From the IMG/VR virus record IMGVR_UViG_3300032331_000813, positions 1 through 64,000 of that record: a DNA stretch of 64,000 nucleotides; one strand, written 5' to 3'. Position 1 is the stretch's first letter, and each line of letters opens with the position of its first letter. This document shows, piece after piece, positions 26,518 to 60,842 of this stretch. Origin of the DNA: a virus. Made by a program: the position numbers and the translations under genes. Below the pieces are notes generated by a model that saw only the letters and a list, made by a program, of their open reading frames with translations, did not search any database and was not told the DNA's origin.

Positions 26518-29500
26518 ATGGCAACAAGAATTAGAACATTAAATTTTCTTCCAGAAATATTTAAAACACCAACCAATAATCAATTTTTATCAGCAACATT
26601 AGATCAATTAGTTGCTCAACCCAATACGGAAAAGATAGAAGGTTATGTTGGTAGTAAATTTGGATATGGTGTAAATCCAAACGATAATTATGTAACTGAA
26701 CCAACAAAAATTAGAACAGATTATCAATTAGATCCGGGTGTAGTTTTCTTAAAAGAAAATGATACTACTGCAAAAGATTTTATTAGCTATCCGGGCATCA
26801 TTGATGCATTAAAATTAAAAGGTGGTATAACTGAAGATAACAGTAGACTTTTTAATAATCAATTTTATTCATGGGATTCTTTTACTGATTTAGATAAAAT
26901 CATTAACTTTAGTCAGTACTATTGGGTACCTAATGGACCAGAAAGAGTTGTAGTACAATCAAGTGCAATTTATAGTTCGGTACAGTATAATGTACAATCA
27001 GAGACTGCATATTATGTAATTTCATCTAATGAAACTTCACCTGAAATTAATCCGACACTTACACTGTTAAGGGGCGGTACTTACACATTTAAAGTAAATC
27101 AAGATTCTAATTTTTGGATACAAGGCGTTCCTGGATTGACTGGATATAGTCCTGTACAAAGAAATTTACAAACACGTAACGTTTATGGTGTTGAGAATAA
27201 TGGAATAAAAGATGGTACTGTTACCTTTACTGTACCACCCAAAGATGCATTAAGTGAATATTATTTTGTAAACTCTACTACAGTTGATGTAGTGTCTACT
27301 TTACCATTTGCTCAAGTTAATGGTGCAACTGTAGATTCTATTGGTGGTATTGATGGTGTTACTGAATTAGACGGATTGACCGTAATGTTCTACAACACTG
27401 GAGTAGAAAATGAGATAGCTTATACTAATCAATTTTTTGATCAAACACAGTTTGATGAAGAAGGCGGTGTACCTTATACTAATTCTTCTCAAAGAATAAC
27501 AAAAACTATTACTGATAGTAATAGTTTAACCAATGAATTTACTTATATAAACGATACTGGAATTAGTGACTTTCAAGCGAATGATGCTATAACTTTTGTA
27601 GGAACATTAATTGGCGGGGTTGTTAAAAACAAAACATATTATGTAAAAGAAATTACATCTTCAAACACGTTTACTATATCATCAACAGTTAATGGAAATG
27701 TTGTTGAATTGACAGATGCTACCGGTGGTAGTATGACTGTAAGAATACAAACTAGTTATCCTGGCACTGATATTTTTGATAATAACTTTGAAGGTGGATT
27801 CTATAATCAAGTAAGTAGAAATTTTTATTCAGTTACGTTATTAGGTGATGTAGATAATCCAGTAATTCAATTAACTCGCTTATCTTCTATCCCTGCTAAA
27901 ACTACTATCACTGCTGAGTTTGGAGCACAATGGGCTTCAATTAATTTCTTTCAAAATTCATTAGGTGAAATTCAACTTCAACCATATAACAGTGCTATAC
28001 TAGATACATTGTATTATCAAGATGCGACTACTTTATCTAAGGTAGGTCAACTTAGAATAATTGACGATAACTATACTAATTATATTGACGTTGATTTTGA
28101 TATTTTGGGAAAGAAAAACTATACGGCACCAAATGGTGTAGTATTTACCAATGGATTAAAAATTATATTCCAAGGTAATATCTATCCATCTAAGTATGAA
28201 AACGTAGAATATTATGTAGAAGGCGTGGGCAGTGCAATTGAATTGATTCCGGTTGCTACTTTAATATCTCCGGGATTGTTTACCTCAGGTGAGTATACTC
28301 CTTACGACTCTACCCCTTATGATTTGGGTAACTATGATTCTAATTTATATGTTCCTATCAATCCAGATTATCTTACTATTGCTAGAAATTCTATCAATAG
28401 AAATGCATGGTCAAGAAGTAATCGTTGGTTTCACATTGACGTAATTAATGCAACGGCTGCATATAATAACACACCTTCTTTAATAACAGAATACACAAAT
28501 TTAGAAAATAAAGCAAAACGACCAATTATTGAATTTTATCCTAACATAAAATTATTTGATTCTGGTGCAGTAGGTAAAGATCCTATAGATTTTATTGATA
28601 CTAGGACTACAGATGCATTTACATATGTAGCTGGTCAATCCTCATATTTTCCAGATGTTGCCGGTTATACAGGTTATAATGCTACGATTGCACCAGTTAC
28701 CTTAGCAGACACCTCAGTGATAGCAACAAACGTATATGGATATACTGATACTATAGCTGTAAGTAGTGTTACAGGTTTATATGTCAATGACACCATAAGA
28801 TTCACTGTTCCTATAATTAATGCTGTCTCACTTGTTGTTGGAAAAACATATGTTATAAACACACTTGGTTCTACTAATTTTACACTAGTTGGAGCATTAT
28901 CAAATACAGTAGGAACATCTTTTGTTGCTACTGGAGTAGGAACTGGCACCGGTACTGCAACTACGTTTGGAGGACTTACACCAAACACTACTTACTATAT
29001 AACTAGTATAGAAACAAATGTTCAAGTAAGTTCTAATGTGTTTAAAGATTTGATTACTGTCTCTTTAACTAGACAGGGTGTAAATGTAAATCTATCAAAC
29101 TCAGATACATTGAGTATTGCCACATCAATATATCATTACAGTACTTCTATTACAGTTCCTACTAGTAGTATATCTGGGCTATTTGAAAAGAATCAATACG
29201 TATCAGACTCGACCAATTATCTACCTAGTGTAACATTAATAAGTAATGTAACAACGGTCAATGATAACACTATAATAACTGTTACTTGGACAGTTCAAGC
29301 AGTTATTCCTGCAACTTCAATTGCTTCAATTGTCTCTGCTGATACTCCATTAGATAATTATGGATTATTTGATGGTGCTAGAATTGTGTTTGCAGCAGAG
29401 ACTACTGATTCAGTTAGGAATAAAATATATATTTCTAGATTTGCTTCAATAACTCCAAATGGAACTCCTTTAATTACTTTGGTTGAAGCAGAAGATGGAC

Positions 29501-32500
29501 TAGTATTACCAAACGAACAAACTGCGGTATATAGAGGTTATAACTACACCGGTAAAGATTTTTATTATACTGGTATTGAATGGGTAGAAGGTCAGCAAAA
29601 AATAACAACTAATCAAGCACCCAAGTTTGACCTGTTTGATAAAAATGGAGTAAGTTTGGGAGACCCTGATGTATACAATGGAACATCATTTACAGGTTGT
29701 ACATTGTTTGCGTATAGCATAGGTACAGGAAATGATGATTCTGTGTTAGGTTTCCCGTTAAGCTATAGTTCTGTTGCAAATTTAGGTGATATTAATTTTG
29801 ATGTAACTTTAAATTCAAACACATTTAACTATGTATATGGAACAACTGCGGTTACTGAAAAAGTAAACATTGGGTATGTTTATAACTATACCACAACTGA
29901 AAATTTTGTAAGACAAATAGGATGGCAGACTGCGGTATCTCCTAGTGTTCAATATCAAATTTTTGACATTGCTTGGACATACTTAAGTCCAAACATTGAA
30001 TTTACATGCGACATTGCACCAATCGCTTCTAACAAAACTAATTGGCCTACTGTTCAAGTATACATTAATAATACATATTTAGAACCTTCAAAGTATACAG
30101 TAACTACAACCGCAACTACTACAACAGTAACTATACCTGATATTAATTATACTTTATCTACTGAATTTACTGTACAAATTTTAATACTAAGTGACCAAGT
30201 AAGTCAAACTGCTTACTATCAGACACCTGACAACTTAAACAATAATCCATTCAATGATGAGATTACCAAAGTCAATGTAGGGGACATACGCGGTCAATAT
30301 CAAAGTATTTTCTATAACAATCCGTTTACTACTGGTCAAATATTTGGTTCAAACAACTATCGTGATTTGGGTAATTTAGTTCCATGGGGTAATAGAATTA
30401 TTCAAAATAGTGCTTCATTAGTGTTGCCAGCAACATTCTTACGTAATCAAAGCCATGATTTATTCAATGCATTATTATACAATAGCAGACAGTATATTAC
30501 TTTTAAAACATTATTAGTTGATACAGTAGACAAATCAAACTATACAATTGATTGGACTCCGGCAGCAATGTTAGATGACACATTGCAACAAATGAATTTA
30601 TCACATTCAAATGAACAACCGTTCTTTTGGAGTGATATGGTTCCGTCGAAATCTCCTCTAGTAGCAAACTCATACTATTTTGCAAATCCTTTAGATACAA
30701 GCCGTTATCCATTGACTAGAATTTATGATTTTTCTGTAGCAAATTATTATAGCGTGTTGGTATATTTGATTCGTGACGAGGAAGAAACTCAGTTAATTAA
30801 AAACGTTGATTATACGATAAGCACAGATAGCCCTTCATTGGTTGTTACATTAGATTTATTGGCTAATGACACAATCATAATCAAAGAATACAATCAAACA
30901 TATGGAAGCTATGTTCCTAATACTCCAACTAAGTTGGGACTATATCCAGCAACAATTCCTAGCGTAACATTAGATACTGCGTATACACAACCAACATATT
31001 TTATTGTTGGACATGATGGCTCATATAATAGACTATACGGAGATTATAATGCTGAAACAAATACTTTAGTAGATTTTAGAGACCAAGTATTACTTGAGTA
31101 TGAAACTCGTGTATATAACAATTTGAAGTTAAGCGAAACTGTACCTGCAGGTTCTTACTCAGGAGTTTTATTACCTGGATTTTTTAGAGACACGGATTAT
31201 ACCTATGATGAGTTCATGCAAATATACAGTGAATCATTTTTAGATTGGGTAGGTCAAAATAGAGTAGATTATAAAATACAGTATTACAATAAATCAAATC
31301 AGTATACTTACAACTATCGTGATAGTGGTAATAAATTAAATAGTATACCTATACAACAAGGTTATTTCAGGGGAATATATTTATATTTTTATGATACCAC
31401 AACACCAAATGCTACGCCGTGGGAAATGTTAGGTTTTGTAAATATGCCAACTTGGTGGGAAACTAGATATGGTCCCGCACCATACACAAGTGATAACTTG
31501 GTGTTATGGGGAGATTTAGAAAAAGGTTATGTATGGAACGACGGTAATCCTTACATAAAACCACAATATGCACGTGCCGGGTTAACAGATGTAATACCGG
31601 TCGATAGTAACGGTGCATTAATAACACCAATGATTTCAGTTTTAGGAAATTATAATGAATATACATTCCAACGTGATTGGAAAGTAGGCGACGTTGGCCC
31701 GGCAGAATTTAGTTATCGTAGAAGTAGTAGTTGGCCATTTGATTTGATGCGTATTCTAGCATTAACAAAACCAGCAGATTTCTTTAATTTGGGAGTTGAT
31801 GTTGACAATTACAAATACAATGCTGAATTTAATCAATACTTAGTTAATGACAGAAGTCATTTGGTAATTAGTGATGTACCTATTTATGGGTTAGGTACTC
31901 CTGCAACTAGCTATATCAATTGGATAGTTGATTATGAGAAACAAGTTGGAGTTGACGCCACTACTAATATAAGCACATTGTTAGATAATTTAGATGTTCG
32001 TTTAGTATATCGTTTAGCAGGATTTAGTGATAAAAACCTTCTTCAATTCTATGTAGAAAAGAGTTCTGCCAACAGTAATAATAGTTCATTACTAATTCCT
32101 GACGAAAGCTATCAAGTATTATTATACGAAAATCAACCATTTGATAGAATCGTATACTCTGGGGTCGTAGTACAAATAACTGAAAATGGTTATAAAGTTT
32201 ATGGTAATAGTCAGACTAATGCATATTTCAAAACAGTAGTTCCTAAAGCTACTAATATCACAGACAAAATTACAGTAGAAAATTTGTCGGTAGATGTAAT
32301 TACTGATTTTTATAATATCACGGCAACTATTCCATATGGTATTGAATTTTATAACGTGCAACAAGTATCACAGTTTTTAATTAGTTATGGACAACATTTA
32401 ACTAATCAAGGTATGGTATTTGAAAATGTAGAAAATGGAGTACCTGTTACTTGGAGACAGATGGTAGCTGAATTCTTATATTGGGCACAAATGGGTTGGG

Positions 32501-35500
32501 CTCCGGGTAGTATTACTACAATAAATCCGGCAGCATCAACATTGGTCATCAACAAAGAAAGTTCTATTGTTCAACCATTAACATTGCGTCAATTTAATTT
32601 TGTATTAAATCAAAATCTATATCCTATTCAAGGTAGCGATATGGCAGTGGTTCGTGAAGATACTGCGTTTTCAGTTACTCCGTTGAATGTTGGTGATGCT
32701 ATTAGCTATGGACAATTCAATATTAGTAACATTGAACATGGAATTGTATTTGACAATGTAACATTGTTTAATGATATAATTTACAATCTTTCAACTGGTT
32801 TAAGACAAAATCGCATTTTTGTTCGTGGAAGAAAAACTGCTGAATGGAACGGCAATGTAGACGCATTTGGTTTTATTTTAAATCAAGATAATATCACTGA
32901 ATGGACTAAAGAAGTAAAATATACTCAAGGCTCTATTGTAAAATATAAAAACAAATATTGGACAGCTATAACAATTGTACAAGCAAAAGAAATATTTGAC
33001 GAACGTGAATGGGTTGTAACAGATTATGACAAAATTCAAAAAGGATTATTGCCTAACAGCCAAACACGTTCATACGAAAGCACATTGTATTATGATACAA
33101 ACAATGCTAATTTAGAAAATGATGCTGACTTACTTAGTTTTAGCTTGATTGGGTATCGTCCAAGAGATTACATGGCTTTAGCTGACTTAACTGATGTGAC
33201 GCAAGTTAATGTTTACAAAAACATGATTAAAGAAAAAGGCACACTAAATGCAGCAAGTGCGTTTAAAGGTGCAACTTTGCCGCAAGGTGGAATTAAATAT
33301 GATATTTACGATAATTGGGCTATATTATCAGGGTCATACGGTGGCATATTAAACAATAATTTTGTTGAGTTCAGATTGAAACAATCAGAACTAACTGGTA
33401 ATCCTTCTATAGTAGGATTAACTAATGGCATATCAATTAACGGGGTTCAACAAGAAGTACCTATATACAGTTTGTTTAATTATGGTAGACCATTAGACTC
33501 AGTTAACATATTACCTACTATACCTAATACTCAACCATCAACGTTATATCCTACCTCAGGGTATGTAAATTATAATGACGTTACAATGGCTAGTTATTTC
33601 TATTCAGGGTTAAGTGCAGCACAAAACTATACTGGAAAAACTATACCTATTAATCAATTCTATGTAAGAGATTATGCTTGGTTAGCAAATTACCTAGCAA
33701 CTTGGCAAGTATATACCCCTGCTAGCTTAGGTACAGTAATAAATGTAGACAATAACTTAAATGGTACTGTGACGGTAACATTTTCTCAAGCGCATAATTT
33801 AAAATTATATGATCCATTTGCTATAGTTAACTTTGCAGTTGATATTGACAACTATTATATAGTAGCAGCCGTCCCAAATCCGCAGACAGTAATAATTAAT
33901 CTATCACTAAATCCTTCTATCAGAAACATAACTGGTCAAGGTATAGGAATGAGAATGCAAAGTCAACGTGTAGCTACTGCACCTGAAATTGATAATCTAC
34001 CACTATTAGATAATGAATTCAACAAACTTAAAGTTTGGGTAGATACTAACAATGACGGAAGTTGGGCTGTATATCGCAAGAGTTTGAATTATCAATATGA
34101 CAATGAAATTATCAAAGCAGCTTCACAAAATTTTGGTAGTGCAGTTGCATACACTGAAAATTTAGGGTATTTGATAGGTGATAGTGCGTTGGGTACTGTT
34201 TATAGATATCTGTATAACGTTGAAGAAAATGTTTATACTTTATCACAAGCTATCAGTCAAGGTGGTTCATTTGGATCATGCATAACATATGTTGATGATT
34301 TGTTTGCAATATCACAACCAACACACCCGTCAGAAGTACCTGCATTATACATATATCAATTAACAACTAATGATATAATTAATACGATAGCATTATATCA
34401 AACTATTACTGCTCCAAATGGGGTAACTAATTGGGGTAGGTCTACTGCAATGTCAGGTGATCAAAATTGGTTATACATTTCAGATACTGATAATGCTAAA
34501 GTTTATGTGTATCGTAGGTCTTCAACTACTCAACTATATGTTCAAGTTAAAACTTCAAACGGATTACCATTGACATTAAGCGTAGCTGAATTAACATCAG
34601 CAGATTTGTTTGGCTATTCAATTGCAACTGATTATTATGGCGATACAGTAGTAATTGGAGCACCGTTTAAGGATTATACTAATGATGGTACTACGAACAA
34701 CTATGGATATTCTTACGTCTTTAGTAGAACTGTACAAAATTTTATAGCACAACAAACCGGTCAACCTTACAAAGAATTGACTTTTCAATTAGGATTTACT
34801 CCTGAAACTGTTGTGCAAATTGCTACTTCAACTGATGCTGCAACTGATAGAATTACAGTAGCTGATACCAGTGCATTTAATGTAAATGATCCGGTAGTAT
34901 TTTCTGGCACCATATTATCTAGTGGTGCACTATCCGCTAACACTGTTTATTATATAAAAACTATACCAACATCAACTGCGTTTACTGTTTCAAGAAAAAT
35001 AGGAGGGAGTACTTTCCAATTAATAGATGATACTGGAATACCAGGTATGACCGTGACTGTTCAAACTACTCCATTGTATGTAACAATAAATGGTGAGTTG
35101 TTGTCTGATAAAAACTATGCGGTTACTGGTTCAGTGTTAAACATTTATACTGATTCTACTATTTTAGTAAATGCAGGCGACTTGATTAATGTGAGTGCCC
35201 CTTCTTTTGTATTAGCACAAACTTTAACTGATGAAAATCCACCTAGGGTAGGAGTTGAGTTTGGTTCAAGTATTGATGTTAATGCATTTGCCAATGAGAT
35301 ATTAATTGGCGCACCATATGAGTTAAGCAGTAAAAATAATGAAGGTGCGGTACATCGTTATACAAACGGTGGTGAAAAATACGGTATAGTTATTGGTTCA
35401 TCTAAGTGTGCTATAACCTCAGAACAAACTATTTTTATCAATGGGTTTGCAGTTATTTTACAAGCAGGAAATGCTTCTTCAGCAGCTACTAGTATTAATT

Positions 35501-38500
35501 TAGTTAACATACCAAACGTATATGCTTCAGCATCTGATACCACTGATAATGGTATATTATCTATATCATTAGTAGACGTTGAGATTGGTGTAATGGGTAA
35601 TAAACTATCACTAACTGCTTTATTGTCTACTACCTTTGCTGAAATGGGAATGACTATTTATAAAAAGACACAAACAATTGTCTGCCCACATTCTGCTACA
35701 AGAACTCAATTTGGAGCAGTTGTTAAATTTAACAAGTCTACATATGGATCATTCGTTGCTAGCGCCCCAGCAGGAGCACGAGTTGCTGCAACTACTTTTG
35801 ATTTTACAGATGATGAATTAGACAACGATACGGTATTTGATAATAATGCCACTCAGTGGATAGATAGTTTTGTCAACGCCGGTGCAGTGTATATGTTTGA
35901 CTTCTTATCTGCATATAACGAAAATATTGATAATCCGGGTAAATTTGTGTACGCACAAAGTACAAACGCTAGAGATATTGAGTACGGAGCACAACCATAT
36001 TATGGAACTGCATTAGATTTCAACAACAACCGAGTTACAATTGGAACTCCTAACTTTATATCGCCTACACTGACTTATCAAGGGCAAGTTGTAACTTATA
36101 TAAGTTCTAGTACTGAACCTGATTGGGCTGTGTATAGGGAATCAGCACCAGTAGTAGATGTTAATGGAATATTTAACATTCAGATGTATAGTGCAATGAC
36201 TAACGATACATTAGAAAATCTAGATTATATTGATCCTCTTCAAGGAAAACTATTAGGTGTAGTAGCACAAAACATTGATGTTGTTTCTAATCAAGATCCT
36301 GCTAGCTATAACTCTCCTGGTATAGCACAACAAGGTATAGTATGGGGACAAGATAAAGTAGGTCATATTTGGTTCAATACTTCTAATACAAGATTTATGA
36401 ATTATCATCAAAATGATGTTAATTATAATAGTCAATGGTGGGGTAGAGTATTTCCGGGCAGTGATGTAGCAGTATATTCTTGGATAGAAAGTAATGTTCC
36501 ACCTGAACTATATTCTGGTCCTGGAACGCCATTTGATACATTTAACTATGCTGTTAGAGGGGTGATCAATGCAGAAGGGCTAATTACTCCTGTATATTAT
36601 TTCTGGGCTAGAAATACAAATATTGTTTTTGAAAGATTAGGAAAAACATTAGCAGATTCTACATTAGAGTTATACATTACTAGCCCGCAAAATACTGGTA
36701 TATCATATTTTGCACCACTGCTACCTAGTGTGTTTGGTTTATATAATGGATTTGAATTTATCAATGCAAATGACACGGTACTTCATATTGGATATTCTAC
36801 TGGAACTAATAGTGACGTATCACATAATCAATATAGTTTGATTCGTGCAAATTATGCAAATGACTTCTTACCGGGAGTACCTGGATCCGGCGCAGCTTAT
36901 CAAAATCACTTAGCAGTTGGTATCACAGAACCGATTGATTTATACAATCGAATGTTAGATAGTATGTGTGGGGTTGACAATGCAGGAGGTGTTGTTCCCG
37001 ACCCACAATTACCAAAAGCAGTTCAAACTGGCGTACTTGCTAGACCAAGACAGGGTTTCTTTTATAGCAGATTTGGAGCACTAAAGAATTATTTACAGTA
37101 TGCAAATACTGTATTATCACAGTTCCCAATTACAGAAATGAGACCTAACATTCCTTTCTTGAATACTACTGGTGAGTTTTATGACACTAGTGCTTATTGG
37201 ACATTAATCAATTGGTGGGCTCCTGAATACAACGATAATACTAAATCATTAATTCAAGTCCCTGTGTATGCAGATTTGGCTGCATTGACAGTTGCCGTTG
37301 GAACTATAGTTACTGTTTTACAAAACGGTGTTGGTAGTGCAGAGACATACATTTATAGTAGTGATGGTGCTTGGATTAGAATAGGATTAGAAAACGGAAC
37401 CATAGAATTTAAGAGTGTTCTTTGGGATTACCCTAGTGCTAGATTAGGTTTTGGTGATAATTTCTTTGACACTACTTTATATGATGTTTATCCTTCTGCG
37501 GAAACAAGATATATTGTCCGTGCCTTAAATGAAGAAATTTATACTAATGAATTATTAATCTTTAGAAATAAGAGTCTAATACTATTGTTTGAATACATTC
37601 AAAGCGAAACTATTGAAAGTCAAAACTATTTGTCATGGTTAAATAAAACTTCATTTGCAGATGTATCACATACAATTCGTGAATTATTACCAATTGAAGT
37701 ATTTCAATCTGACAATGAATTATTCTTAGAAGGTTACTTAAATGAAGTTAAACCTTATCACGTAGTTATTAAAGAATTTATTTTCAAATATACTAGAGAA
37801 GAAATATATCAAGGTGATGTTACTGACTTTGACGTACCTGCACAATTTACCTCAGGTGTAAATGAATTTATAACTCCTGAGTTAGTTTATACTACTCCTA
37901 CAGAAATTAATCAATTTAATTATCTTGACCCAATCTGGGCAACAGCACCTTATAATCAATGGTATAATAATTATGGTGTAAGTTTGAATGGTGAAAAAGG
38001 ATATTACATTGCTACATTAGCATCTTATATTTCATTGAATGCAACATCTTGCTATGTAGATAATATTAACGGTTTTCCGGTTACTGGTAGTATACTAATC
38101 GGAACTGAAGAAATTGGATACTCATATAGAGATTTGGCAACTAATCAATTAAGTGGATTGTCTCGTGGACAAAATAGTACAACTATTGCTATTCATTTCC
38201 CAGAAACAAATATATACATGAATCTTCCTGGAGTATTAGTTACTGATACTGGTAGAAATTATTTAAATCCTCCAAGAATTACTGCTTACATAGACTTAAC
38301 CAAATATCCTGCTCCTAAGATAACAGCAATATTAGAACCAATATTAGCTTTAGGAAAAGTTATTGGAGTGACCGTCGTAGACCCTGGTTTGGGTTATGCT
38401 GTATTACCTCAAATAATTATTGATCCTGCAATTGTAATAACGATTGATAGTTCTCAAGTAAGTATAGTAGACAATACAATTGACATTGGTAGTACTGAAT

Positions 38501-41500
38501 TACAAACTGGAGATTTAGTAGTATATACTGTTGGCCCTAACTCAACCCCTATAGGTGGATTGAAAGAAGGTCAAAGATATTATGTAAATCTTCTAGAAAC
38601 TATACCTGCACCAATCATTGCACTTTATACTGAATATCTATCTGCGATTGAAGATCACGATAGAGTTATATTAGATAGTACTGGCACAGGGACTCAAAAG
38701 TTCAGCATGGGTGCTGCTGCAAATGCAATAACAAATGCAACACCAATAAGAGAAAATATAATATCATTAAGATTTGATAGAACAACTTATAATTCTCAAG
38801 TAGTAGAGTGGTCACCATTTGGATATTATGGTTCTTTCTATGCTGGAACATTGCGTAATCCCGACAAAGTAGCATCATCTGCAATTACTTTATACAGTAA
38901 CACTCCGCCTATTGAAACTATATTAGCAAGTGCTCAGGGAGCAACATTTGAAATTTTAGATACTACTAATCAGCAAACACTTGAGTGGTCATCAAGAACA
39001 AGAAATACAATGCAGACGTATGGTAGTCTTTACCCTACTGAAGCATATAGAAATGCAATTCGTATCGACCCGTCAGACGGTGGTGTAGCAGTAGAAGGTT
39101 TTATTGGATCAACAATTGGTTTCTATATAGGAATGCCAGTTAAGTTCAACGGGTCAACTATTGGTACATTGTTAGAAGATGATGTAACTTACTATGTTAA
39201 GTCATTAGTTAAGTTACCAAATACAGGAACATCAACTAGTGCAACCAGAACCAATGCTTCAAATAATACTATTACAGTAGCTAGTTCTGTTAATTTTAAA
39301 TTGCAAGATACTGTTGTGTTTACTAGTGCTACGCAGATTATATCTTCCGGATATTTTGTTATAGGTCAAACGTATGAAATAACAACAGTAGGAACAACTA
39401 ACTTCACCTTAATAGGTGCTGCTTCAAACGATGTTGGTACTGTGTTCATTGCAACTGGAGTCGGCACAGGTACTGGAACTGCGGAACAGAGAAGTTTGGG
39501 CAATGTTATATATCTTGAAACATATTATATCTTGAGTAAACCGTCTGCAACTACAGTTACACTCTCACAAACATTAGGTGGTAGTGTATTCAAGTTATCT
39601 AATGCCACTGGTGTAATGACAATGATCAGACCTGATACTGATGTATTAGAAGATACTGGTTTTACGATTTCTGATACAGTTGACGAGAATGGTAATCCAG
39701 GCGCAGTTTATTCTCCTAACATTGGCATTGGTTCAGTAACTATTGCACCTGCAGGATTAAAATTACTAACAGGCAATCAAACTAATCTTGAGATAATAAC
39801 AATTAATTATTCTGGATTAAGAAATACTGTAGCTACTACAGGTACTACAAACACAGTAACTGTATTGTTGACTGCTACAGGCGAAAATGGTACTACTGGA
39901 TTCTATACTGGACTTCCTATATTCTTTGTAGGTAATACGTTTGGTGGAATTGTTGAAAACATTAGTTATTATGTAACTACTGTTATTGATGCACAGACAT
40001 TCACAATGTCTCCTACATCAGATGCACCTTTTGCTATTAGTTTCACTGAAACCACATCAACAGATAATTTAGTTGTTTGTGGAACAAGTAGTACTGAAAA
40101 TATTACTTTAAACTTGTCAGTCAATGAACCTATCATATTTACTGACTTCGTATTAAAAGCAGGTTACTTTACAATAGGACAAGTATATTCTATAGTTTCT
40201 GTAGCAGATAATAACGGCGGTGCTACTACTGATTTTACTTTGATTGGTTCAAGTTCTAACGCTATTGGTACTATATTTACTGCTACTGGTGTAGGCACTG
40301 GAACCGGTACTGCTACCCCAACAAGTCCTTCTACTACGTTTGGTGGAATAGTTTTTGGTAAGACATACTATGTAAGACAAAAGTTTGCAGACGTTGACCC
40401 AATTGATTTAGTTACAACTACATACTCTATTTCTATAGCTGAAAGCGTAAATGGAGATGCAGTAACATTAACTAATACGGTTGGTTCATGTTTGTTTACA
40501 AGTCAAAAAGATACACTACCATTAACAACAGCGACAGGTTCTATGACTATGAATGTTGCATTACCAGTAAGTCCTGGACAAGTTGATGGACAACAGTTTA
40601 CTTTATACAACACTTCTAGTCAGTTAGCGGGCAAACAAGGAACAGTATCTAATCTATTGAATAGAGAAATAACTTCTACTTTAGATACAGTTAATAGAAT
40701 TTGTTTATCTTCATTTAGCGGTGGATTAACTGACATATACAATAATTTACAATTTAAAGTTTCTACACCAATTGGTGGATTGACTAATGCTACCGTTTAT
40801 GCTGGTAGTTTCATTGTTGGAAATGTTTATACAATAACTTACATTGGTGATACAACTCAATCTAATTGGAATACTATTGCAGGTACTACTGGTGTAGTAT
40901 ACACTATAAACAGTGTGTTTACTTGTGCAGCAACTGGAACTTATATTGGATCACAAACTGGATCTGCTGTAAGAGTTTATAAAATAACAGGAACTGGAAC
41001 TACCTCAGTCAAAGTTATTGAAACTCAATCTTCTGGAAATTGGTTAAGGTTAAACGATGACGATAATCCAAATACTACTGATGTTTTATATGTGGGTATG
41101 CCTTTATATTTCAGCGGTACTTCAGTTGGTTCTGTATCATTAGGTGTAGTGTATTATGTGTTTAGTATAGATTCAAGTCCACCGTCAGGTACAGGTAGAT
41201 TCTCAATATCAGAAGTATCTGATTTGTCTAGCCAATTTACAGTAACTGACGATGTTGGAGTAATGACCGGATCAGGAGATCCTTATGTAACAATAACTTC
41301 TCCTGCGTCATTACTAGATTCTAATCAAATAGCAACTTTCTCAAGTGCTCCTAGCACTGCAACAGTAACAGTAACTAACGGCTCATCATTTACAAATGGT
41401 ATGGCAATAAGATTCAATACTACTGACACGTTACCTACTCCGTTGAAAATAAATGTAACTTACTATATTAAGAATCTTAGTGGAAATACATTTAATATAG

Positions 41501-44500
41501 CATATAGTGCTACTGGTTCACTTATATCATTGTCATTAAATGGTACCGGAGTTCAAAGAGCATATGCTCTTCCTGTTATACTAACACAAGTTACAAAATC
41601 AGATCCGGTATTTGATGTAAGTTATATTTTAGGTGGTTACAGAACAATAATTACAAATCCAGGTTCAGGGTATGCAATAAACAATGCTATTACTGTATTG
41701 GGAACATCATTAGGTGGAACTACTACTAACAATTTAATACTAACCGTAACTTCAATCAATTCTGAAGGTGGTATACTATCAACTACTGCAAGTGGAACCC
41801 CACCTGGACCAGAAAATCAATACTATTTGAAAGTATTGTCAGTAAATCAAATGGCTGTGTATTCAAATGCTATATTGACATCACAAGTAAGTGGACAAAA
41901 TTTCCCTTACAAGGGTATAACAACTATTACAGCAACTGCCACAACAGCAGCTACTGATTTAATTACTATAAACAGTACTAGTGATTTCAGCGTTAATGAC
42001 CCAGTTGTCTTTACTGGAACAGTGTTTGGAAATATAGTTTTAGGAGCTACGTATTATATCACTGGGTATGGCCCTACAATTAGTGCTGGCAGTTTTGTTG
42101 CTACAACACAATATAGAATTAATTCATTAGGCACTACTGATTGGAACATTGCAGCAGGAACATACGGTGTTACATATAGTGTAGGAGATGTGTTTACTGC
42201 TGTAACAACAAGTTCAGGTACAGGTAATGTTACTTTGTTAACAAGAATAACGATTTCACAAACAATTGGTGGTTACACATTTGAATTAGCAGATGCTACT
42301 GGTTCCATGACAATGGCTAAATCAGGTGACTATGCATTGTTACCGGAACCATTCTACTTCAGTCCTAGTATTGTAAAATACGGAACTCGTTTATATGAAT
42401 GCGTAGTCAGTAATAATGACAATGAGTTTATTTTTGGTAAGTGGGCATTACTAGATACCGGAAATAGAAATGTAAATGCACTAGACAGAATTGCAGCATA
42501 CTATCAACCAACAGTTAACATGCCGGGTGTTGATTTAACCCAACTAGTATCAGGTATAACATATCCAAATAGCACTTATTTAGGTAATGCATTCGCACCA
42601 GCAGATGAATTCACATTAGATACAATTTTAACTGATAGACCATTCTACCCAACTGGTGTAGATTTAGAAGCCATCATTTGGAATGGTGTAATTTATATGG
42701 CTGCTGCTCAAACAAGCGAATATAGTTCAATTAACATGAGTGTAGATACTGATAATTGGACAATAACAAAGATAGCAAGAAATCCAATCAATATAACCAG
42801 TCTATTATATGTTAACGGTAACTATTTGATGACAGCTAATAATGGAGCAACACCGTTATTGATAAGTGAAGATGGATATCAATGGATAACTAACGGTTCA
42901 TTTACCCCTTTCAGTAGTACACCATGGGACGTTGTTTCATATGATATATCTTCAATGTCTATGCCGGCGTTCTCATTGAATGAGTCAGCATATTACAATG
43001 GTATATATGTTGCTGTAGGTGATAATATTGTGTCATCAACTGATTTATATGCATGGGTAGAAAGATTTACATTTGGTGGCACTTTGACTACTAGTGAGTT
43101 TAAAGGGGTTTGCTATGCAAATACCGCTGGATTCTCTGGTTTTATGGCAGTTGGTTTAGGACAAATAATTACGTACAACAATGTTGGCAATGTGACTAAT
43201 GTTGGTATAGTCTATACTAGCCCTGACGGTATTACTTGGCAACAAGTTCCAATGAATATTACAACTGATTTAAGTTTTAATAGCATTGCAGCTAGTGGAC
43301 AAACAATTGTCGTAGTGGGTGATGATGGATTAATATGGACAAGTTTCAACGGAAGTATTTGGTTTAATCAAACATCTCCGATAACATCTAACTTGAACAA
43401 TGTAAGTTGGAATAGTGTTAATAATACATTTATGGCAGTTGGTGATGATGGTGTGATATTATATAACTCTACAGGCACTGGTATAACATGGACAAGACAA
43501 ACTTCAGGTACTACGGAAGATTTACAAAGTTCAGTATGGAACAATTCACGTGGTGAATATGTCGTAGTAGGATATAATAACACTATATTAACAAGCACTA
43601 TCGCAGCAACAAGTTGGTCAGCACATGCTAAATTTATAAATCCAATAGCAGTGTATGATGTACAAGGCGATGATTTCTCTGCAGGATATGGCCCAGAAGA
43701 ATTAGTTGGTGGTGTTGTAGAAGATACCATAATGATGACTGTAGCAACTCGTCCGGGTACAAACTGGGATGAAACAATTTATCAACATACTGGTTATAAT
43801 GTAGTTTCTGAAGAAATATATCCAATCAATGGTACTCAAACTGATTATAGTTTTGCTAATTTAGTATCTACCCCTGCACAATTGAGTGTATTTGTTGTGA
43901 GTTATTTGACTGGAACAAGTACTACTCTTTATGAAGGAGCCGATTATTATATTGACTGGATTAATAAAACAGTATCGATATTTACCCCATTGACTTATGT
44001 ATCATCTACTTTAAGAGATAGATTGCGTATTGATGTATATGAAGTGGGCAACGGAGACCAATTAGTTAAAGCAAATACAGAAACTGATCCACTAAGAATA
44101 AATCCTGTTACAGGATTTAATGAGATATATGTAAATGCTAACTATAGCGCAACTATATACAAAGGTTCAGGATTAATACGTCCTAGTACGGCTCCAATTG
44201 TTACTACTGCAACACACACTAATAGTTTTGATAATACGATAACATGTACTAGTGTTACTGAGTTTGTACTTAATGGACCTATATACTTTTCTGGATATGT
44301 TTTTGGCAATATAGTTGAAGATACAATTTATTATGTTAAATCAATAGGCGGAGTATCAAATCGAATTACTATTTCTGATAGTTATAATTCAAGTACAGGG
44401 GCTGCAGGAGATACTTTCATTTTATCTTCTGCGGACGGAAGTATGGAAGCAGTTATACAGTCTACAAACAGTGTAGTATGGACACCACCGGCTATATATC

Positions 44501-47500
44501 ATAATGGATCATTATTGATATCGGGTATTACTGAAACTGTTTTGAGAACAAAATCAAGTACTAATACCATCACAGCTATTACTACTGGAGGATTGATTGT
44601 AGGTACACCTATCGTATTCAGCGATACTATATTTGGTGGTATAGAGCCTGGCATAATATATTACGTAAACTTAATATATGACTCAAACGAATTTACAATA
44701 TCTGAAACTTTGGGCGGTTCTGATTTAGAATTAACCGATGCAACAGGTAGCGCAATATTCATAACAAATGACTATGCTATTGGATTTGCTGATAATGGAA
44801 TATCTGCGGCAGTAATATTCTCTCAACTGTATGACACAACGGTTGACTATATAAGTTACACATTGTTTGGTGAAACATTCCCTATTCAATATGGATATAC
44901 TATCCCGCAAGTAGAAACATTTGTTGGTGACGGGGCGACCTCTACTTTTGCTTTAAGTAATTATATATCAGATGACAGCGTTGTTAATGCAATAGTAGAA
45001 ATAGACGGCATTCGCAGAACATTAGCAGAATATACTATTAGCACTATTACTAATAGTATTACGTTTAAAAATCCTCCTAGTGCAAACCCTGCGACTACAA
45101 CAGCTGGTAATTTTGTAGTGGGAACTTCTTATCGTATTGCGTCATTGGGAACAACTGATTTTGTATCAATAGGCGCAACTTCTACGGCAAATGTTACTGG
45201 TTCTATTAGTGGTACATCTTTAACTATTACTAGTGTTACTTCAGGATTATTAGATTCAGGAATATGTATAACAGGTACGGGAATAACAGCTGGCACATAT
45301 ATTACTGATCAAATATTAACGCAGACAGCGGGCAATTTTATTGTAGGGATGCCATATAGAATAGAGTCTATTGGAACAACTGATTTCGTAGCAATAGGTG
45401 CAGCTTCAACAGCGGTTGTAACCGGTACGATTAGTAATGGTTTAGGTAGCGCAGGTAATAAACTTAATGTTACTGCTTCAACTTCAGGTGCGTTAGCAGT
45501 AGGCACTTACATAACAGGTACGGGCGTAACCGCAGGAACATATATTACTGCTTTGGGTACAGGTAAAGGCGGAATAGGAACTTATACTGTAAGTGTGTCA
45601 CAAAATGTAACTTCAACTACTGTTACAGGTCAACCGTTAGTAGGTGAAGGATTTATTGCAACTGACATAGGATCTGGTACTGGAACTGCAACACAAACTA
45701 ATCCCGGTGGAATAGGTTTATACACGGTTGATACTTCACAGACAGTGGCAGAAACTGCAATAACAGGTCAACCAACTGTTGGTACTGTATTTACTGCAAC
45801 TGGCGCAGGCGCTGGAACTGGAGTTGTAACTGGGCTAGTAAGTGTCGCAGTAACGACATATAACTTAACCGAACGTCAGTATCTTAGCACTCAATATAAT
45901 ATTACTGGTATCACACAGACTAGCCAAGGTTCTGTAACAGTAACTGGTAGTCATGGGTTAGAAGAAACATATGATATGCCAGTTAATGCAGGCTATTTTG
46001 ATGTTGGACAATCTTACACTATACAAACATTGGGTAATACAAATTGGACAAGCATAGGTGCAACTCAAGTAACTGATGCTACCTTAACAAAAGGCACTCA
46101 GTATATTATTAATACTTTGGGAACCGCAGATTGGACTTCAGTTGGTGCAGGTGGAACAGTAACTGGTAGTATATCTAACAAAACTATCAATGGGGTAAAT
46201 ACTGGAGTACTAACTGTAACTAGCGTATTGACCCCGTCGATTGTAGTGACTGATTTGGTTATTGGACAAACTTATACAATTTTATCATTAGGTACAACTA
46301 CTAATACACAATGGAATACTATTGCAGGCACTACTGGAAAAACATATGCGGTAGGTAATAGAATAGATGCTCAAGTAGTCGGGACTGGTACTGGCACTGT
46401 AGCAATGAATATGGTAGCAGTTAATCAATTCCTTAGCAGTAGTAGTGTTACTGTTACTGCTGGTAATTTTAATATAGGAACTTTATATACTGTTGCAACA
46501 CTCGGTACTACTAATTTCGTAGCCGTAGGTGCAGCTTCAACTGCGGTAGTAACTGGAGTTATTGGTGTTACTGTTACAGCTGGTAGTTTTGTAATAGGAA
46601 ATTCATATTTTATTACAACATTAGGGACTACTGATTTCACTTTAATTGGTGCAAGTTCTAATACAGTTGGTGTTACATTTATTGCTACGGGCGCAGGAAC
46701 TGGTACTGGAACTGCAACTAGACCGGGTATAGCAGGTACTACCCTTAATGTATATGCAGTTACTTCAGGTACATTAGCAGTTGGCACTTATATAACAGGA
46801 TCAAATGTAGCAGGTGGCACTCGTATTACAGCATTGCTTACTGGAACAGGTGGAATAGGTACATATACTGTTAGTACTTCACAATATGTAAATTCAACTA
46901 TAATAACAGGACAGCCGGCGGTTGGAAGCACATTCACTGCTACTGGAATAGGAACTGGAACTGGAACTGCATCCTCAAGCATTGCAGCAAGCACAACTAT
47001 AACAGGTTTCTTAAGTGGTTCAGGTGGCGTAGGTACGTATACATTGAGTAGTCCACAAATTATAACAAGTAGAACCATGACTCTTGGTCCTAATGTAGGG
47101 GTATTATTTACCGCTACTACTAATAGTGATCCATCAGGTTCAGGCGGATTTGCATATGTAGCTAGCTTTACTGCAACTGGGGCGGGTACTGGTATTGGTG
47201 CCGGAACAATAGCGTATAGCACAACAGATTTTTCTACATTACAGTATTGGTTAAGTACATCAGCAGGAGGCACCAGTGTATTGGGTGTAAATTATCCAAT
47301 AGTATTTGGAACAGTTATACCAAACTGCGGTATAACTGCCGGAAGAAGATATTATGTAACAAAAATATTAGATTCTTCAAGATTTACGGTGTCTACTCAA
47401 GTAGGGGGAGCATCTCCTAAATTAGAAACTACTACCGGTACTATGATTGGCACAATGACTCAATTATCAGTTTCACCGATTGACAACATAACTAATACTA

Positions 47501-49788
47501 TAACACGTCCTGCATTTAGTTTATCTATTGCAGAAATAAAAGGTGGATCTCTTGATATAATAAACGTAGCTGCAACTACCGTAGGTAGTCAGTATGTTAT
47601 TGTAGCTTTAGGAAACACCAATTGGAATACAGTAGGTAACACTACAGGAATCACTTATGCTGCCGGAGATTTATTGACTGTAGTAAATGTTGCTACTGGA
47701 ACTACCGGTACTGTACAGCTTGCTGATGTTATAAAAGTACCGGATGTATATGGTTTGGCAGAAGGTCAAGATGTTATATTTAAAATAAATCAAACTAACG
47801 CTGGTTCATTTTTAGTTGGGTATGCGTATGTTATTAATGATTTAGGTAGTACCACACAATCACAATGGAACACTATAGCAGGTACCTCAAGTGTAATATA
47901 TAAAGTAGGAATGGGATTCACTGCTGCAACTGTTGGTACTGGTACTGGAACTGCTGTGTTAGTTGACGTAGGTGGATTGAATACATCCGGTGAAACTTAT
48001 TTTGTTAAAACAGTTATATCTAACCCATCAACATTATACGGAAGCTATTTCATAGTCGAAGATCAATATGGCACAGTACCAACATTGTCAACTACTATGT
48101 ATGAAATTGTAGCATACATTGGTGGTACTCCTACTATCAGAATTAATACAGCTACTGATACAAACTTAATACAAAATAATGTAGTACGTATTGACGGTAC
48201 GATTGGTTCAGTTCAATTGAATAATAATATATACTATGCTAAGATCATACGCAATAATATTATTGATATCTACACAGAGCCATACAATCCAGCATTATAT
48301 GCAGAAAATTACCCAGTAATATCATCTTACACTTATGTGTCTGGTGGTTACATTTGGGTAGATGAGTTGTTCACAGTCGCTGACACTTACGCAACTGCAT
48401 CTAGTTCAAATGGTAATAGAATTACAGTTGCTGATACTAGCATGTTAGTACCGGCTACCCCTGTGTATTTTACACAATCAGGTTCTGAGATAGGTGACGA
48501 TTTATTAGGCGGAGTAAAAGCTAAAACTGAATACTATATATTACAAGTAAGACCTGAAATCGCAGCTGGTAATTTTATAGTAGGAAACTATTATGAAATT
48601 TCTATTCTTGGCGATACTAATTGGAATACCATGTCTGGTATAACTTCAGTAAATGCAGGTTCATTTGTAGTAGGATATACATATCAAATTACTTCAGCAG
48701 GTAATACTGATTTTACAACTATTGGTGCAACATCAAATACAGTAGGCGTAATTTTTGTTGCTACTGGAGTTGGTTCTGGTACCGGAACTGCTAATATAAT
48801 ATACGTTGCCGGTGATGTTTTTGAAGCAGCATCTGCTGGTAGTGGTACTGGATTTGCTTTGGGATTACAAGAATTTACTATAAGTGAAAAGAGATTCCCA
48901 GATGAAGCTGAAGTCACGTTAATCGATGATAGTTCAAGTGCTATTGAAAATACAATACACGTATCACAATTCCAACAAGTTAATGTTGATAGATTGTGGG
49001 TAACAATTAACGGTTATAGAGTACCGTCATCATCATTAAGATTGAATCCTTATAATAATTTAAGTATTTTAGCTACAGTAAATACCGGAGACGATGTAAT
49101 TATTACTAGCATGATGCCTACAGCTACACCAAATGAAGAAGTGTATCTATTAAACGTGCCAATGGTAGCAGATTCATCAGTGTATAGGGCAAACACACAA
49201 ACTAGAACATGGTTGGTTGAACCACTAAGATACGTAGATGACACTATTTATTTAAATGACATTAGTAGAGTTACGGATACCCTTACACAAGTATCAACGG
49301 TTCCTGCTGAGTTAGATGGAAAATACAGCATAGGTGTTGTTGGTACTAAGAACACGATCACTAGCGTAACTGTTTACAACAACACAACTGACGCATGGAT
49401 AGATCCAGCTGTATACTCGCTTGTAATAGTTGATTTTGCTCCTATCTTAGAAATCGACAGTGAAGTTTCTGAGGGAGATTCAGTCACTATCACTATTATT
49501 GAAGGAAGATTATTGTACATCAATGGAGAACAGATTGGATTTGGAAAGTGTGACTTAATAAACAACACCGTAACTGAATTATCTAGGGGAACAAATGGAA
49601 CCGGGCAGCAAACTTACATACCGTTGTATGCTGAAGTCTTTGGTATGTTACCATCTAATCAGATGACCAGTGTATTATATTCTGACACATGGAACCCAAT
49701 CCCAGGAATTTACAATACAGTTGACGGAGATCCATTGCAGATTGCATATACCCAAGGTGCAAACTTCTTGCGAGGCGACATTAATTAA
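26518..49788 (+). CDS. Giant 7,756-aa baseplate/fibre protein (gp7-position wedge scaffold fused to many adhesion-like modules)
   Basis: Single uninterrupted 23.3 kb ORF after gp6; contains an EVKPYH wedge-like motif, FG-GAP-like and BNR-like propeller repeats, about 16 copies of a ~45-aa GTGTG module and about 15-17 copies of a ~70-aa beta module. Confidence 0.8.
45103..47214 (+). repeat. Recursively nested protein-module array inside the giant gene
   Basis: Modules A (AG.F.VG..Y.I..LGTT.F..IGA...VG..F.ATG.GTGTG) and B (VTG.I....L.VT...SG.L.VG..ITG...AGT.IT...GG.G.YTV..SQ) interrupt one another with matched N- and C-halves. Confidence 0.8.
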
Positions 49789-53850: not shown

Positions 53851-54156
53851 ATGGATACAATTACACTAATCACCGAAGCTAAAGCCCGCTTTAGTCACAA
53901 TGCAGCCAAAGCATATTTAAAAGACAAATACGATAGTAAGTTTATTATTGCTGAACAATCTGGACTTTGGCGTGCTAACTTAGAGACTATAAATTTTTTA
54001 AATTCATCTAGTGATGAATGGGTAATTTTAATTGACAAATTTGAAAACCCAGTAAAGGTTCTTAGAGCACCTCTATTAGATAAACTTGCCATAACTTATA
54101 AAACAGTTATGGAAGAATGGCATGCAGAATGGTCTGAACTAGAGAACAAGAGATGA
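53851..54156 (+). CDS. Hypothetical protein
   Basis: 101 aa, strong SD, ATGA overlap with the next gene. Confidence 0.75.
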   Translation: MDTITLITEAKARFSHNAAKAYLKDKYDSKFIIAEQSGLWRANLETINFLNSSSDEWVILIDKFENPVKVLRAPLLDKLAITYKTVMEEWHAEWSELENKR

Positions 54157-54962
54157 GTAAGGGCGTATTACTGTTTGCTTTCAATAGCCCAAAGTATAAC
54201 TACTATGAAATGGCAGTAGCAACTGCCAAAAGAGTTAATCATTTTTTGGGTCTACCTGTAACAATGGTCACTGATAGTGAATCATTGCCAGTCAAACAAA
54301 CATATCAGTTTGATAATATTGTTATGGCACCCGCTGATAAAACTAATTTCAGAGATTGGGGTTTATGGATTAACAAAGGTAGATACCGCGCATATCAGTT
54401 TAGTCCTTATGATGAAACTATCTTATTAGATACAGATTACATGATTAATTCAGATAAACTATTAAAGACTTTTGAATTACCTACTGATTTTTGCTGTCAC
54501 GATACAACTAGTTTTTTGATGCATCCAGAATCTGCACAAGAAGCATTGAGTGCATATAGTTTTAACACGTTATGGGCTACGGTAGTTATGTTTAGAAAAA
54601 CTGGTCGTGCTAAACAAATATTTGAATGTTTAGAAATGATTCAAAATAATTTTGAACATTATGCAACCATGCATGGATTCATATCGGCAACTTTTAGGAA
54701 TGACTATGGATTATCTTTAGCCACTAGAATTGTAAATGGACATACGGTGTCTAAAAGGGATGTTATACCGTGGAATCTATTACATGTAGGAAAAAATACA
54801 ACTATGTATAGGAATAACGACAGTGAACTTAATACTGAGTATACTGTGTTATTTGACAATTGGAGTCGCGGGAAAGTTCGCAAAGAATATCTCACTATAA
54901 AAGATACTGATTTTCATGTGATGACTAAAGAAAACTTTATGGAGTTAATCACGTATGAATAA
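54153..54962 (+). CDS. Putative glycosyltransferase (GT-A fold, DxD)
   Basis: KGVLLFAFN...Y..MA N-terminus, SPYDETILLDTDY (DxD), WATVVMFRK, RND. Confidence 0.65.
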   Translation: MSKGVLLFAFNSPKYNYYEMAVATAKRVNHFLGLPVTMVTDSESLPVKQTYQFDNIVMAPADKTNFRDWGLWINKGRYRAYQFSPYDETILLDTDYMINSDKLLKTFELPTDFCCHDTTSFLMHPESAQEALSAYSFNTLWATVVMFRKTGRAKQIFECLEMIQNNFEHYATMHGFISATFRNDYGLSLATRIVNGHTVSKRDVIPWNLLHVGKNTTMYRNNDSELNTEYTVLFDNWSRGKVRKEYLTIKDTDFHVMTKENFMELITYE

Positions 54963-55710
54963 AGGTTTTGTAATAATGGCACAAGATACTAATAAAGTAA
55001 GCTATACAAAATGTGCCGAAAAACTAAGTAAGAGTATTAAGCGAGTGATGCCTGATGCTAATGTAACGATTATTACTACTGAAATGTTACCACATGGTGA
55101 TTTAGCTCCTTACAACGATTGGAAATTAATCAATGACTGGCAAGTGTATGAAGCAAGTCCTTATGATTACACTATTAAGCTAGAAGCTGATATGTATGTT
55201 CCTAGAAATATAGACCATTGGTGGGATGTATTAAAAGATAGGGACGTTGTAGTTTCATCTGCAATACGAGATTATAAGCAAGAAATATCAACTGTAAGAT
55301 TGTATCGTAGATTTATTGATGATAACAAGTTACCTGATGTGTATAATGCTATAACCTATTTTAAGAAGTCACCTATCGCTGAAGAATTTTATAAATTAGT
55401 TAGAGAAATCTTTACAAATTGGGAGGAATATAAGAAAGTTTTACAATGTAACTATCGTGAATATGCTACCACTGATTGGGTATACGCTATTGCATGTCAT
55501 ATTATGGGCAAAGAGAAAACAACACTGCCCACATTTAATGAAATGACAATGATACATATGAAACAATATATTGCCGGTACACCCACTGATGATTGGACAG
55601 ACACACTATTATATGAATTCTTACCTGATCAAATTAGAATACAGACTATACCTCAGCAATATCCATTTCACTATCATGTGAAAACTTTTTGTGATAAAAT
55701 AACATTATGA
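54955..55710 (+). CDS. Putative glycosyltransferase (GT-A fold), paralog of the preceding gene
   Basis: KGFVIMA, SPYDYTIKLEADM (ExD variant), YNAITYFKKS, TD..YA, HMK, PFHYH.K. Confidence 0.6.
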   Translation: MNKGFVIMAQDTNKVSYTKCAEKLSKSIKRVMPDANVTIITTEMLPHGDLAPYNDWKLINDWQVYEASPYDYTIKLEADMYVPRNIDHWWDVLKDRDVVVSSAIRDYKQEISTVRLYRRFIDDNKLPDVYNAITYFKKSPIAEEFYKLVREIFTNWEEYKKVLQCNYREYATTDWVYAIACHIMGKEKTTLPTFNEMTMIHMKQYIAGTPTDDWTDTLLYEFLPDQIRIQTIPQQYPFHYHVKTFCDKITL

Positions 55711-60840: not shown

Positions 60841-60842
60841 AA

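Follow-up and report, generated by a model that had tools for sequence, protein, structure and literature searches.

A probable four-level domain-in-domain insertion of two alternating modules in a giant structural protein of an uncultured freshwater phage

Recursive nesting of domains in each other's loops has so far been published mainly for bacterial RNA polymerase. The Si3 insertion of the cyanobacterial β' subunit (RpoC2) comprises eight sandwich-barrel hybrid motifs (SBHM), four of which are discontinuous (PMC10895346), and a 2026 survey of 48,551 insertion events, in which single-level insertion dominates, presents it as a six-level recursive insertion and as the showcase of deep nesting (PMC13114784). 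For virus particles, small β-barrels have been described on the outer surface: Gp7 of Arthrobacter phage Bridgette (PDB 8ECI) is a capsid decoration protein that is bound as dimers around the pentamers (10.1101/2022.09.09.507160), and six-stranded barrels of the FCCH type face outward on siphophage tail tubes (PMC13576161). Here, we describe the same principle of nesting in a virus particle protein, in a block encoded within a giant open reading frame (ORF) of IMG/VR record IMGVR_UViG_3300032331_000813, of which we analysed positions 1 to 64,000 (henceforth, the window). The block consists of two modules, A and B, interrupting each other in turn, and we consider it very probable that it represents a genuine four-level domain-in-domain insertion, with five levels if the host domain is included. 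The carrier is an uncultured freshwater giant phage.

The nested block and its host domain

A first-pass annotation of the window had read the order A[B[A[B]]] from a set of short peptides, all of which lie where it placed them and within one ORF of 7,756 amino acids (aa), and this order is borne out to the residue, both by half-profile matches and by matches of the spliced halves to complete profiles. Residues 6195-6437 of the giant protein (243 residues; the interval annotated in the first pass corresponds to aa 6196-6437) read A6n-B1n-A7n-B2-A7c-B1c-A6c, with n and c for the N- and C-terminal parts of a split module. The features, in window coordinates, are:

26518..49788, + strand: giant ORF of 7,756 aa, a single open frame located immediately after the genes for the baseplate hub and wedge
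44917..45087 (aa 6134-6190), + strand: N-terminal part of host domain D, 63% identical to and collinear with orthologues up to this point
45100..45177 (aa 6195-6220), + strand: N-half of A6, with a half-profile match, 63.6 bits for spliced A6 and predicted contacts with the A6 C-half
45193..45306 (aa 6226-6263), + strand: N-part of B1, preceded by the linker TSTAN, in contiguous alignment with the N-parts of uninterrupted cassettes
45325..45402 (aa 6270-6295), + strand: N-half of A7, preceded by the linker DQILTQ, which stands in for the B hairpin loop, with a half-profile match and a predicted local distance difference test score (pLDDT) of 93-97
45418..45633 (aa 6301-6372), + strand: B2, the intact innermost domain, matching phrog_21413 at E 2.9e-15, pLDDT 97-98
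45634..45690 (aa 6373-6391), + strand: C-half of A7, from the A profile, the half-profile and the spliced score
45706..45771 (aa 6397-6418), + strand: C-part of B1, preceded by the linker TQTNP, from phmmer, the half-profile, VIA-align superpositions and predicted contacts
45772..45828 (aa 6419-6437), + strand: C-half of A6, from the A profile, the half-profile, the spliced score and predicted contacts
45829..45885 (aa 6438-6456), + strand: C-terminal part of host domain D, aligned with TVVSVTSYNLTDRQY, which in the orthologues follows immediately on the PPA-x-D motif

A first profile of module A, built from four uninterrupted copies, retrieves full copies starting at aa 768, 4276, 4548, 6687 and 7379 of the giant protein and, inside the block, half matches at 6195-6223 and 6420-6435 as well as at 6270-6298 and 6375-6391, while a phmmer search with the intact B2 finds B1 in two pieces (6225-6264 and ~6397-6418). 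Half-profiles of both modules (An, Ac, Bn and Bc), made from intact copies of A (38) and B (138) taken from many phages and read with a simple bracket parser, return An@6195 Bn@6226 An@6270 Bn@6301 Bc@6351 Ac@6375 Bc@6397 Ac@6420, a string of typed brackets that is fully balanced, with zero violations; among the 2,520 orderings of these eight tokens, 84 are well formed and 6 reach a depth of four.

When spliced, the separated halves match end to end the hidden Markov models that were built from intact copies of other phages only, with every copy from the giant protein excluded, scoring 63.6 (A6), 62.8 (A7) and 62.4 bits (B1) over the full profile length (E ~1e-15 at Z=1e6), with A6 and A7 covering positions 1-46/47 of the A profile; the intact controls A12 and B2 score 82.9 and 89.9 bits, respectively. 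Nine uninterrupted cassettes of other phages have N-parts that align gap-free with the outer N-part (A6n+B1n), at 49-64% identity, and C-parts to which the outer C-part (B1c+A6c) is 40-67% identical.

The block as a whole is itself a guest, a level that the first-pass annotation had overlooked. Using the conserved C-terminal 296 residues of the giant protein, we fetched 14 related-phage loci, ten of them at 60-67% identity; those most like this phage (L049-L056) carry no B and few A modules over the ~3,300 codons upstream. BLAST collinearity with the orthologues extends up to aa 6190 and resumes from ~aa 6919, the region between being hypervariable. The empty site (PPA-x-D/G-T-V) is present in each of the five orthologue contigs that we read, which represent four distinct sequences (L049, L053/L055, L054 and L056) and run straight through it; L049, for one, reads ...NSIIFNTPPAVDTVVSVTSYNLTDRQY. 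Since the orthologues continue uninterrupted, the 249-residue block is a lineage-specific insertion into a loop of the host β domain D, and, judged from sequence, the full architecture is D[A6[B1[A7[B2]]]], with four levels, or five counting D. The borders of the insertion have no k-mer of 6 nt or more in common. Against Pfam, domain D gives only sub-threshold matches (DUF2460, E 0.004; Phage_T7_tail, E 0.04), and its motif F-x-GDG-x-T…V-x-V-DG…Y-T-I…I-x-F-x-x-PP…V-x-V (44917-45087 and 45829-45885) resembles one in the conserved C-terminal region of the protein (window 48898-49785).

Spread and ancestry of the A[B] cassette

A search of 1.84 billion representatives returned 1,297 proteins at E<=1e-3. 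The A[B] cassette is found in at least 30 copies in other phages (e.g., L063-L070, P0013, P0015 and P0026), and the observation made in the first pass that B enters A at one constant point extends to all of these: the junction IGA / sSTAxVTG ... ITGQ / P-x-VG of our block recurs there in identical form (IGA-sSTAVVTG ... ITGQP-xVG). Further arrangements include tandem B without A, arrays of A without B, A[B B], B[B], B[B B] and B[B[B]]. Most relatives are one level deep, and the full A[B[A[B]]] was found in none of the 150 best representatives. P0006, an unrelated protein, has B[A[B]] at the same B hairpin loop as in B1, with the enclosing outer A absent; the A/B region is absent from the fetched relatives of P0006. 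In both B1 (45706-45720) and the outer B of P0006 (aa ~375), a GG-x-GLY replaces the near-invariant GG-x-GTY just after the insert, perhaps a derived trait common to the two, or an adjustment to the presence of a guest.

Module B reaches well beyond the cassette. Its host proteins include P22 gp10-like head closure (phrog_578), adaptor, lambda gpD-like head decoration (phrog_49) and tail fibre proteins and, in BFVD, an HK97-type capsid protein, a side tail fibre and a tip attachment protein J. Single B domains are inserted in lambda gpD-like head decoration, adaptor and head-closure proteins (L025:2848-3705; L078:161-2994; L082:838-1725), and a short tail fibre carries a further one, added at its C-terminus; decoration by B thus extends to all parts of the virion. 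The second B of a P22 gp10-like head-closure protein (L097:1126-3264, also in L115, L130 and L137) carries a ~90-aa module that is neither A nor B (GxGYSVNDIVTVVGG…) and occupies the same hairpin loop as A7[B2] here; a similar GSGY module lies near aa 5050 of the giant protein. The presence of B in many virion proteins, together with the guests in its hairpin loop, identifies it as a promiscuous, outward-facing domain in which the GTYIT/GTYTV hairpin serves as a general insertion hot spot.

As to the origin of the block, the first-pass annotation had proposed that an A[B] cassette was copied into its own B loop, and had suggested a phylogeny of the copies. In a tree of 94 B copies, including 30 cassette B's and 60 sampled solo B's, one clade with a support of 95 in the Shimodaira-Hasegawa-like approximate likelihood ratio test (SH-aLRT) contains B1, B2, B4 and the outer B of P0006, and encompasses 26 of the 30 cassette B's and only five of the 60 solo ones. 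The cassette A's behave likewise, 27 of 30 forming a single group of poor support; over 83 rows, the state changes 7 times. This clustering of both partners indicates that A[B] is an old composite unit, and that the block consists of one such unit whose B hosts a second. This part of the proposal thus holds, and the common clade of B1, B2 and B4 agrees with it; to the self-copying part, the identities lend no support, as the copies are no closer to each other than to foreign cassettes. Identities at the protein and DNA level, respectively, are 66% and 71% between A6 and A7, 66% and 72% between A6 and A12, 65% and 66% between B1 and B2, and 66% and 69% between B2 and B4, with within-gene copies overall at 58-66% and 62-73%, and each copy is closest to cassettes from other phages (70-74% identity) and more distant from its neighbour. 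A sister pair of B1 and B2 is neither supported nor rejected (approximately unbiased (AU) test, p=0.50), and the occurrence of B[A[B]] at the same loop in P0006 indicates that the arrangement may be older or recurrent.

These data also bear on whether A[B] is an active mobile cassette, currently copied in frame at the DNA level, by homing or by recombination between GGN-ACN-GGN repeats, into loops that include its own. The recurrence of one cassette type, with constant junctions, in many unrelated virion proteins is what such mobility would produce, and so is the absence of the whole block from the closest orthologues in a region that is hypervariable between them. On the other hand, within-gene copies as divergent in DNA as those above, borders that share no k-mer, the lack of any nuclease or recombinase inside or beside the block, and a strain variant (see below) with substitutions only, mostly synonymous, and no indels all speak against it, and we regard current mobility as quite improbable. 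We therefore favour an evolutionary scenario in which an old A[B] cassette came to lie in the hot-spot loop of another cassette's B, without recent or active transposition. A broader proposal, which we put forward as a speculation unlikely to hold in full, is that A and B, each an ideal guest as well as an ideal host, form a two-letter 'grammar' for virion appendages, whereby recursive loop insertion lengthens or branches a receptor-binding arm and leaves the parent protein undisturbed, while A[B] propagates across the structural genes of phages as an in-frame, semi-autonomous unit, with GGN-ACN-GGN repeat recombination as a possible aid. If true, this would add to tandem repeats and C-terminal domain swapping a new and general way in which fibres evolve.

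Predicted folds, reassembly and support from independent assemblies

AlphaFold2 was run on aa 6190-6441, with an alignment that covered the inner layer only, and returned a mean pLDDT of 88.3 and a predicted template modelling score (pTM) of 0.71, with pLDDT values of 93-98 in the inner cassette and 77-88 in the outer layers; the strands and short helix of the outer A6 and B1 repeat those of the inner A7 and B2. With VIA-align, B2 (model residues 109-185) superposes most closely on Gp7 (8eci_2; Z 6.8, root-mean-square deviation (rmsd) 2.0 Å, 32% identity over 65 residues). It also superposes on the domains II of EF-Tu, IF2/eIF5B and SelB (Z 6.0-6.6), on the outer domain of a phage tail tube (9n71_B, Z 6.3) and on E1 FCCH (4p22_B, Z 5.3), the best superpositions comprising 65-73 aligned residues. 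B is thus an EF-Tu-domain-2/E1-FCCH-like six-stranded barrel, where the middling Z values show a shared fold and leave homology unproven. In two further VIA-align rows (Z 5.4 and 4.7), no more than 63-65 residues are aligned although the rows extend over model residues 34..228, which indicates that the split B1 (B1n+B1c) forms the same barrel. At the sequence level, B2 matches phrog_21413 and, at E 1.3e-9, phrog_38233; no Pfam family is found at E<=10 for B2, A12 or the block, PF16190 (E1_FCCH) does not reach its gathering threshold (Atlas 0.84, a lead only), PDB sequence searches with the block, B2 and the profile give no match, and Foldseek against the PDB with the block gives just 8eci at E 0.24.

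Module A is an unnamed phage module of ~47 aa with the consensus GxFxxGxxYxIxxxGtTdFxxIGA..VGxxFxATGxGtGTG. The intact A12 is modelled with a pLDDT of 96.2, with strands at residues 2-3, 12-17, 36-38 and 48-50 and a short helix at 23-26, consistent with an autonomous small barrel whose termini are adjacent. Its best superpositions are weak, on the C-terminal domain of IdeR (4o6j_A, Z 3.6, rmsd 2.1 Å, 44 aa) and on FeoA (3e19_A, Z 3.2), and tentatively suggest an SH3-like fold of the FeoA/DtxR C-terminal domain type; Foldseek against the PDB with the A model gives nothing usable.

The behaviour of the split modules was addressed by a complex prediction from which the inner cassette was omitted, the outer N piece (aa 6190-6269, 80 aa) being paired with the outer C piece (aa 6392-6441, 50 aa). 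The interaction prediction score from aligned errors (ipSAE) of the pair is 0.80 (runs 0.80, 0.82 and 0.72), against 0.01 for the best of three controls, and the runs have at least 92% of contacts in common, with a partner pLDDT of at least 81. The top contacts join A6n 14-18 with A6c 30-35, i.e., strand 2 with strand 3 of A6, the first strand of B1 (36-38) with its last (24), and the hairpin strands 72-73 with 12-13. As the first strand of B1 pairs with the last, its termini are predicted to be adjacent, and as the strands flanking the insertion loop pair with each other, the insertion site would be a hairpin. The outer A6 and B1 halves are, in this model, predicted to reassemble into single folds without the inner cassette, a result that supports, yet does not prove, that A and B are both good guests and good hosts.

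In such a nested fold, the chain would exit a surface loop of the host β domain D and lay down the first 26 residues of A6, then about two thirds of the six-stranded B1 barrel, then the first half of A7 and, finally, the complete B2 barrel, before closing the open domains in reverse order: A7, B1, A6 and, last, D. Both modules would make good guests because their first and last strands pair and their ends lie together, and each would tolerate an insert at a single loop: in B, this is the hairpin that separates GTYIT from GTYTV, and in A the loop that leads from the short helix (TDFxxIGA) to strand 3. What results would be a side arm of four barrels that projects from a baseplate or fibre protein, with adjoining barrels tied by two antiparallel linkers and B2 at the tip. 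Since B-type domains occur on capsid, connector, tail-tube and fibre proteins, the arm would, by analogy, most likely be exposed and serve in adhesion or decoration.

Several points weigh against this interpretation. The mark set for ipSAE, which was reached by 58 of 80 solved complexes and by 2 of 110 mismatched pairs, holds only roughly here, since our own alignments were supplied; the outer layers lacked alignment depth in the AlphaFold2 run; the SH3-like label of A is tentative, as a best Z of 3.6 is weak for so small a domain; and the structural evidence is all in silico, the rod-like shape of the arm and the full-length pairing of A6n with A6c being putative. In addition, A6n+A7c scores the same as A6n+A6c, so that by sequence alone a swapped pairing is possible.

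The last point would fit a domain swap, in which halves pair with non-cognate partners (e.g., A6n with A7c) or between the subunits of an oligomer; swapped splices reach the same 63.6 and 62.8 bits as cognate ones, and fibre proteins are often oligomeric. However, the linkers that join B2 to A7n and A7c are 5 and 0 residues long, so that closure has to be local; cognate contacts form when the outer pieces are left to reassemble on their own; and the model places B1n with B1c. We therefore give a swap a very slim chance. Barely credible, in turn, is the view that the region is a repetitive, Gly/Thr-rich β-fibre or low-complexity sequence whose 'halves' are recurring short motifs. The strong G/T/S/V bias, the recurrence of GTGTG-type motifs and the lack of a Pfam match invite it, but it is already largely refuted by the end-to-end matches of the spliced halves to foreign profiles, the balanced token order, the modelling of intact A and B as independent domains (pLDDT 96-98), the solved structural relative of B at 32% identity and the passing of the complementation prediction against its controls.

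The nested stretch is real DNA. It is contained in runs from river, lake and other freshwater metagenomes. A riverine contig from an independent study covers 44900-45474 with 4 differences and bridges the D/A6, A6/B1, B1/A7 and A7/B2 junctions, while the closing junctions are covered with 0 differences in two further studies, and by other contigs of the riverine run too; the coverage by runs X5 and X6 is confined to the final 250 bases. In a sister sample, a single 12.4-kb contig extends over the entire stretch (1,051 bases) with 48 substitutions and no indel. For this 95%-identical strain, 39 changed codons were evaluated; with 29 synonymous changes and 10 conservative replacements, they indicate purifying selection on the nested block. 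A chimeric contig as the source of the nested order is, even for a metagenome-assembled viral contig that is ~15% complete, a practically negligible prospect, given the 7,756-aa open frame, the coverage of the junctions by contigs of four studies, and the gap-free 12.4-kb contig.

The window is part of an 84-kb viral contig (the completeness being a CheckV estimate), whose gene neighbourhood is that of a T4-like myophage or jumbo phage, with a portal (phrog_213), a baseplate hub/lysozyme (phrog_13211) and a baseplate wedge subunit (phrog_10646, E 7e-250), and the product of the giant ORF is a baseplate or fibre protein. Residues 1199-2124 match phrog_10938 (virion structural protein), the sole named PHROG match in the protein; its 3,756-aa second half, searched as a whole, gives no PHROG match, although B2 alone does match phrog_21413. 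Pfam, searched with the giant protein, the block, A and B, returns just one FG-GAP repeat (FG-GAP_2), far upstream of the block, and megablast of the region against 50,697 phage records returns no match. After the fibre genes, window 53851-64000 holds a run of glycosyltransferase-like and radical-SAM genes (one radical-SAM PHROG match). The A and B modules are extremely Thr/Ser-rich, and an O-glycosylation of such arms on the virion is conceivable, as pure speculation.

Comparison with known systems

The block displays what characterises a recursive insertion: discontinuous domains flank complete ones over at least two levels and, in silico, their parts reconstitute one fold. One counterpart lies in the same protein. 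In window 45988-47214 (aa 6490-6897), an adjacent block made of the same A and B modules reads, from half-profile tokens and by eye, A8[A9[B3[A10][A11[B4[A12]]]]], and differs in using two further B loops and an A-in-A insertion; at its site, orthologue L054 has just two intact A modules in tandem. Compared with it, the present block is the simplest clean case, with an orthologous empty site that dates one insertion into D. Other insertions of this kind along the giant protein are a Trp-variant A inside the loop of a different, ~75-aa repeat that recurs many times (window 42082-42225, aa 5189-5236), and an A-in-A in which a Trp-variant A (…YVAGDVFEA…) is interrupted by an intact A at aa 7379-7425 (window 48565-48858, aa 7350-7447).

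In the literature, we found no account of nested insertion in phage or tail-fibre proteins, a weak absence given the incomplete coverage. What is new here is the empty site, and with it the lineage-specific insertion into D, the support by independent metagenomes and the mostly synonymous changes in a 95%-identical strain. The block, the empty site of the sister phages and the shared cassette together provide a clean natural model for domain insertability and insertion tolerance, of relevance for the engineering of loop-grafted binders, and the block is a model both for inside-out co-translational folding under deep nesting and for the diversification of phage surface appendages. Both modules deserve family definitions, since A is without a family name and B is matched, by structure only, to a decoration protein that has been little described.

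Among virion proteins, Gp7 and the E1-FCCH-like barrels of siphophage tail tubes are like B2 in being outward-facing six-stranded barrels, on which it can be superposed, but they are single, uninterrupted domains and none is reported to host further insertions. In its architecture, the block shares the principle of Si3. In both, small β modules are recursively lodged within loops of one another, and the array that they form is in turn an insertion, specific to a lineage, in the loop of a host domain; the result is an elongated appendage, as we infer it to be here. While Si3 is made of one module family (SBHM/HABAS), chains of which are absent from the structural matches listed for B2 and A12, our block would alternate strictly between two unrelated folds (A, B, A, B); while Si3 reaches a depth of six in the trigger loop of an enzyme, the block reaches four, plus one for the host, in a virion protein; and, in contrast to Si3, it belongs to a family of cassettes that is spread across phages.

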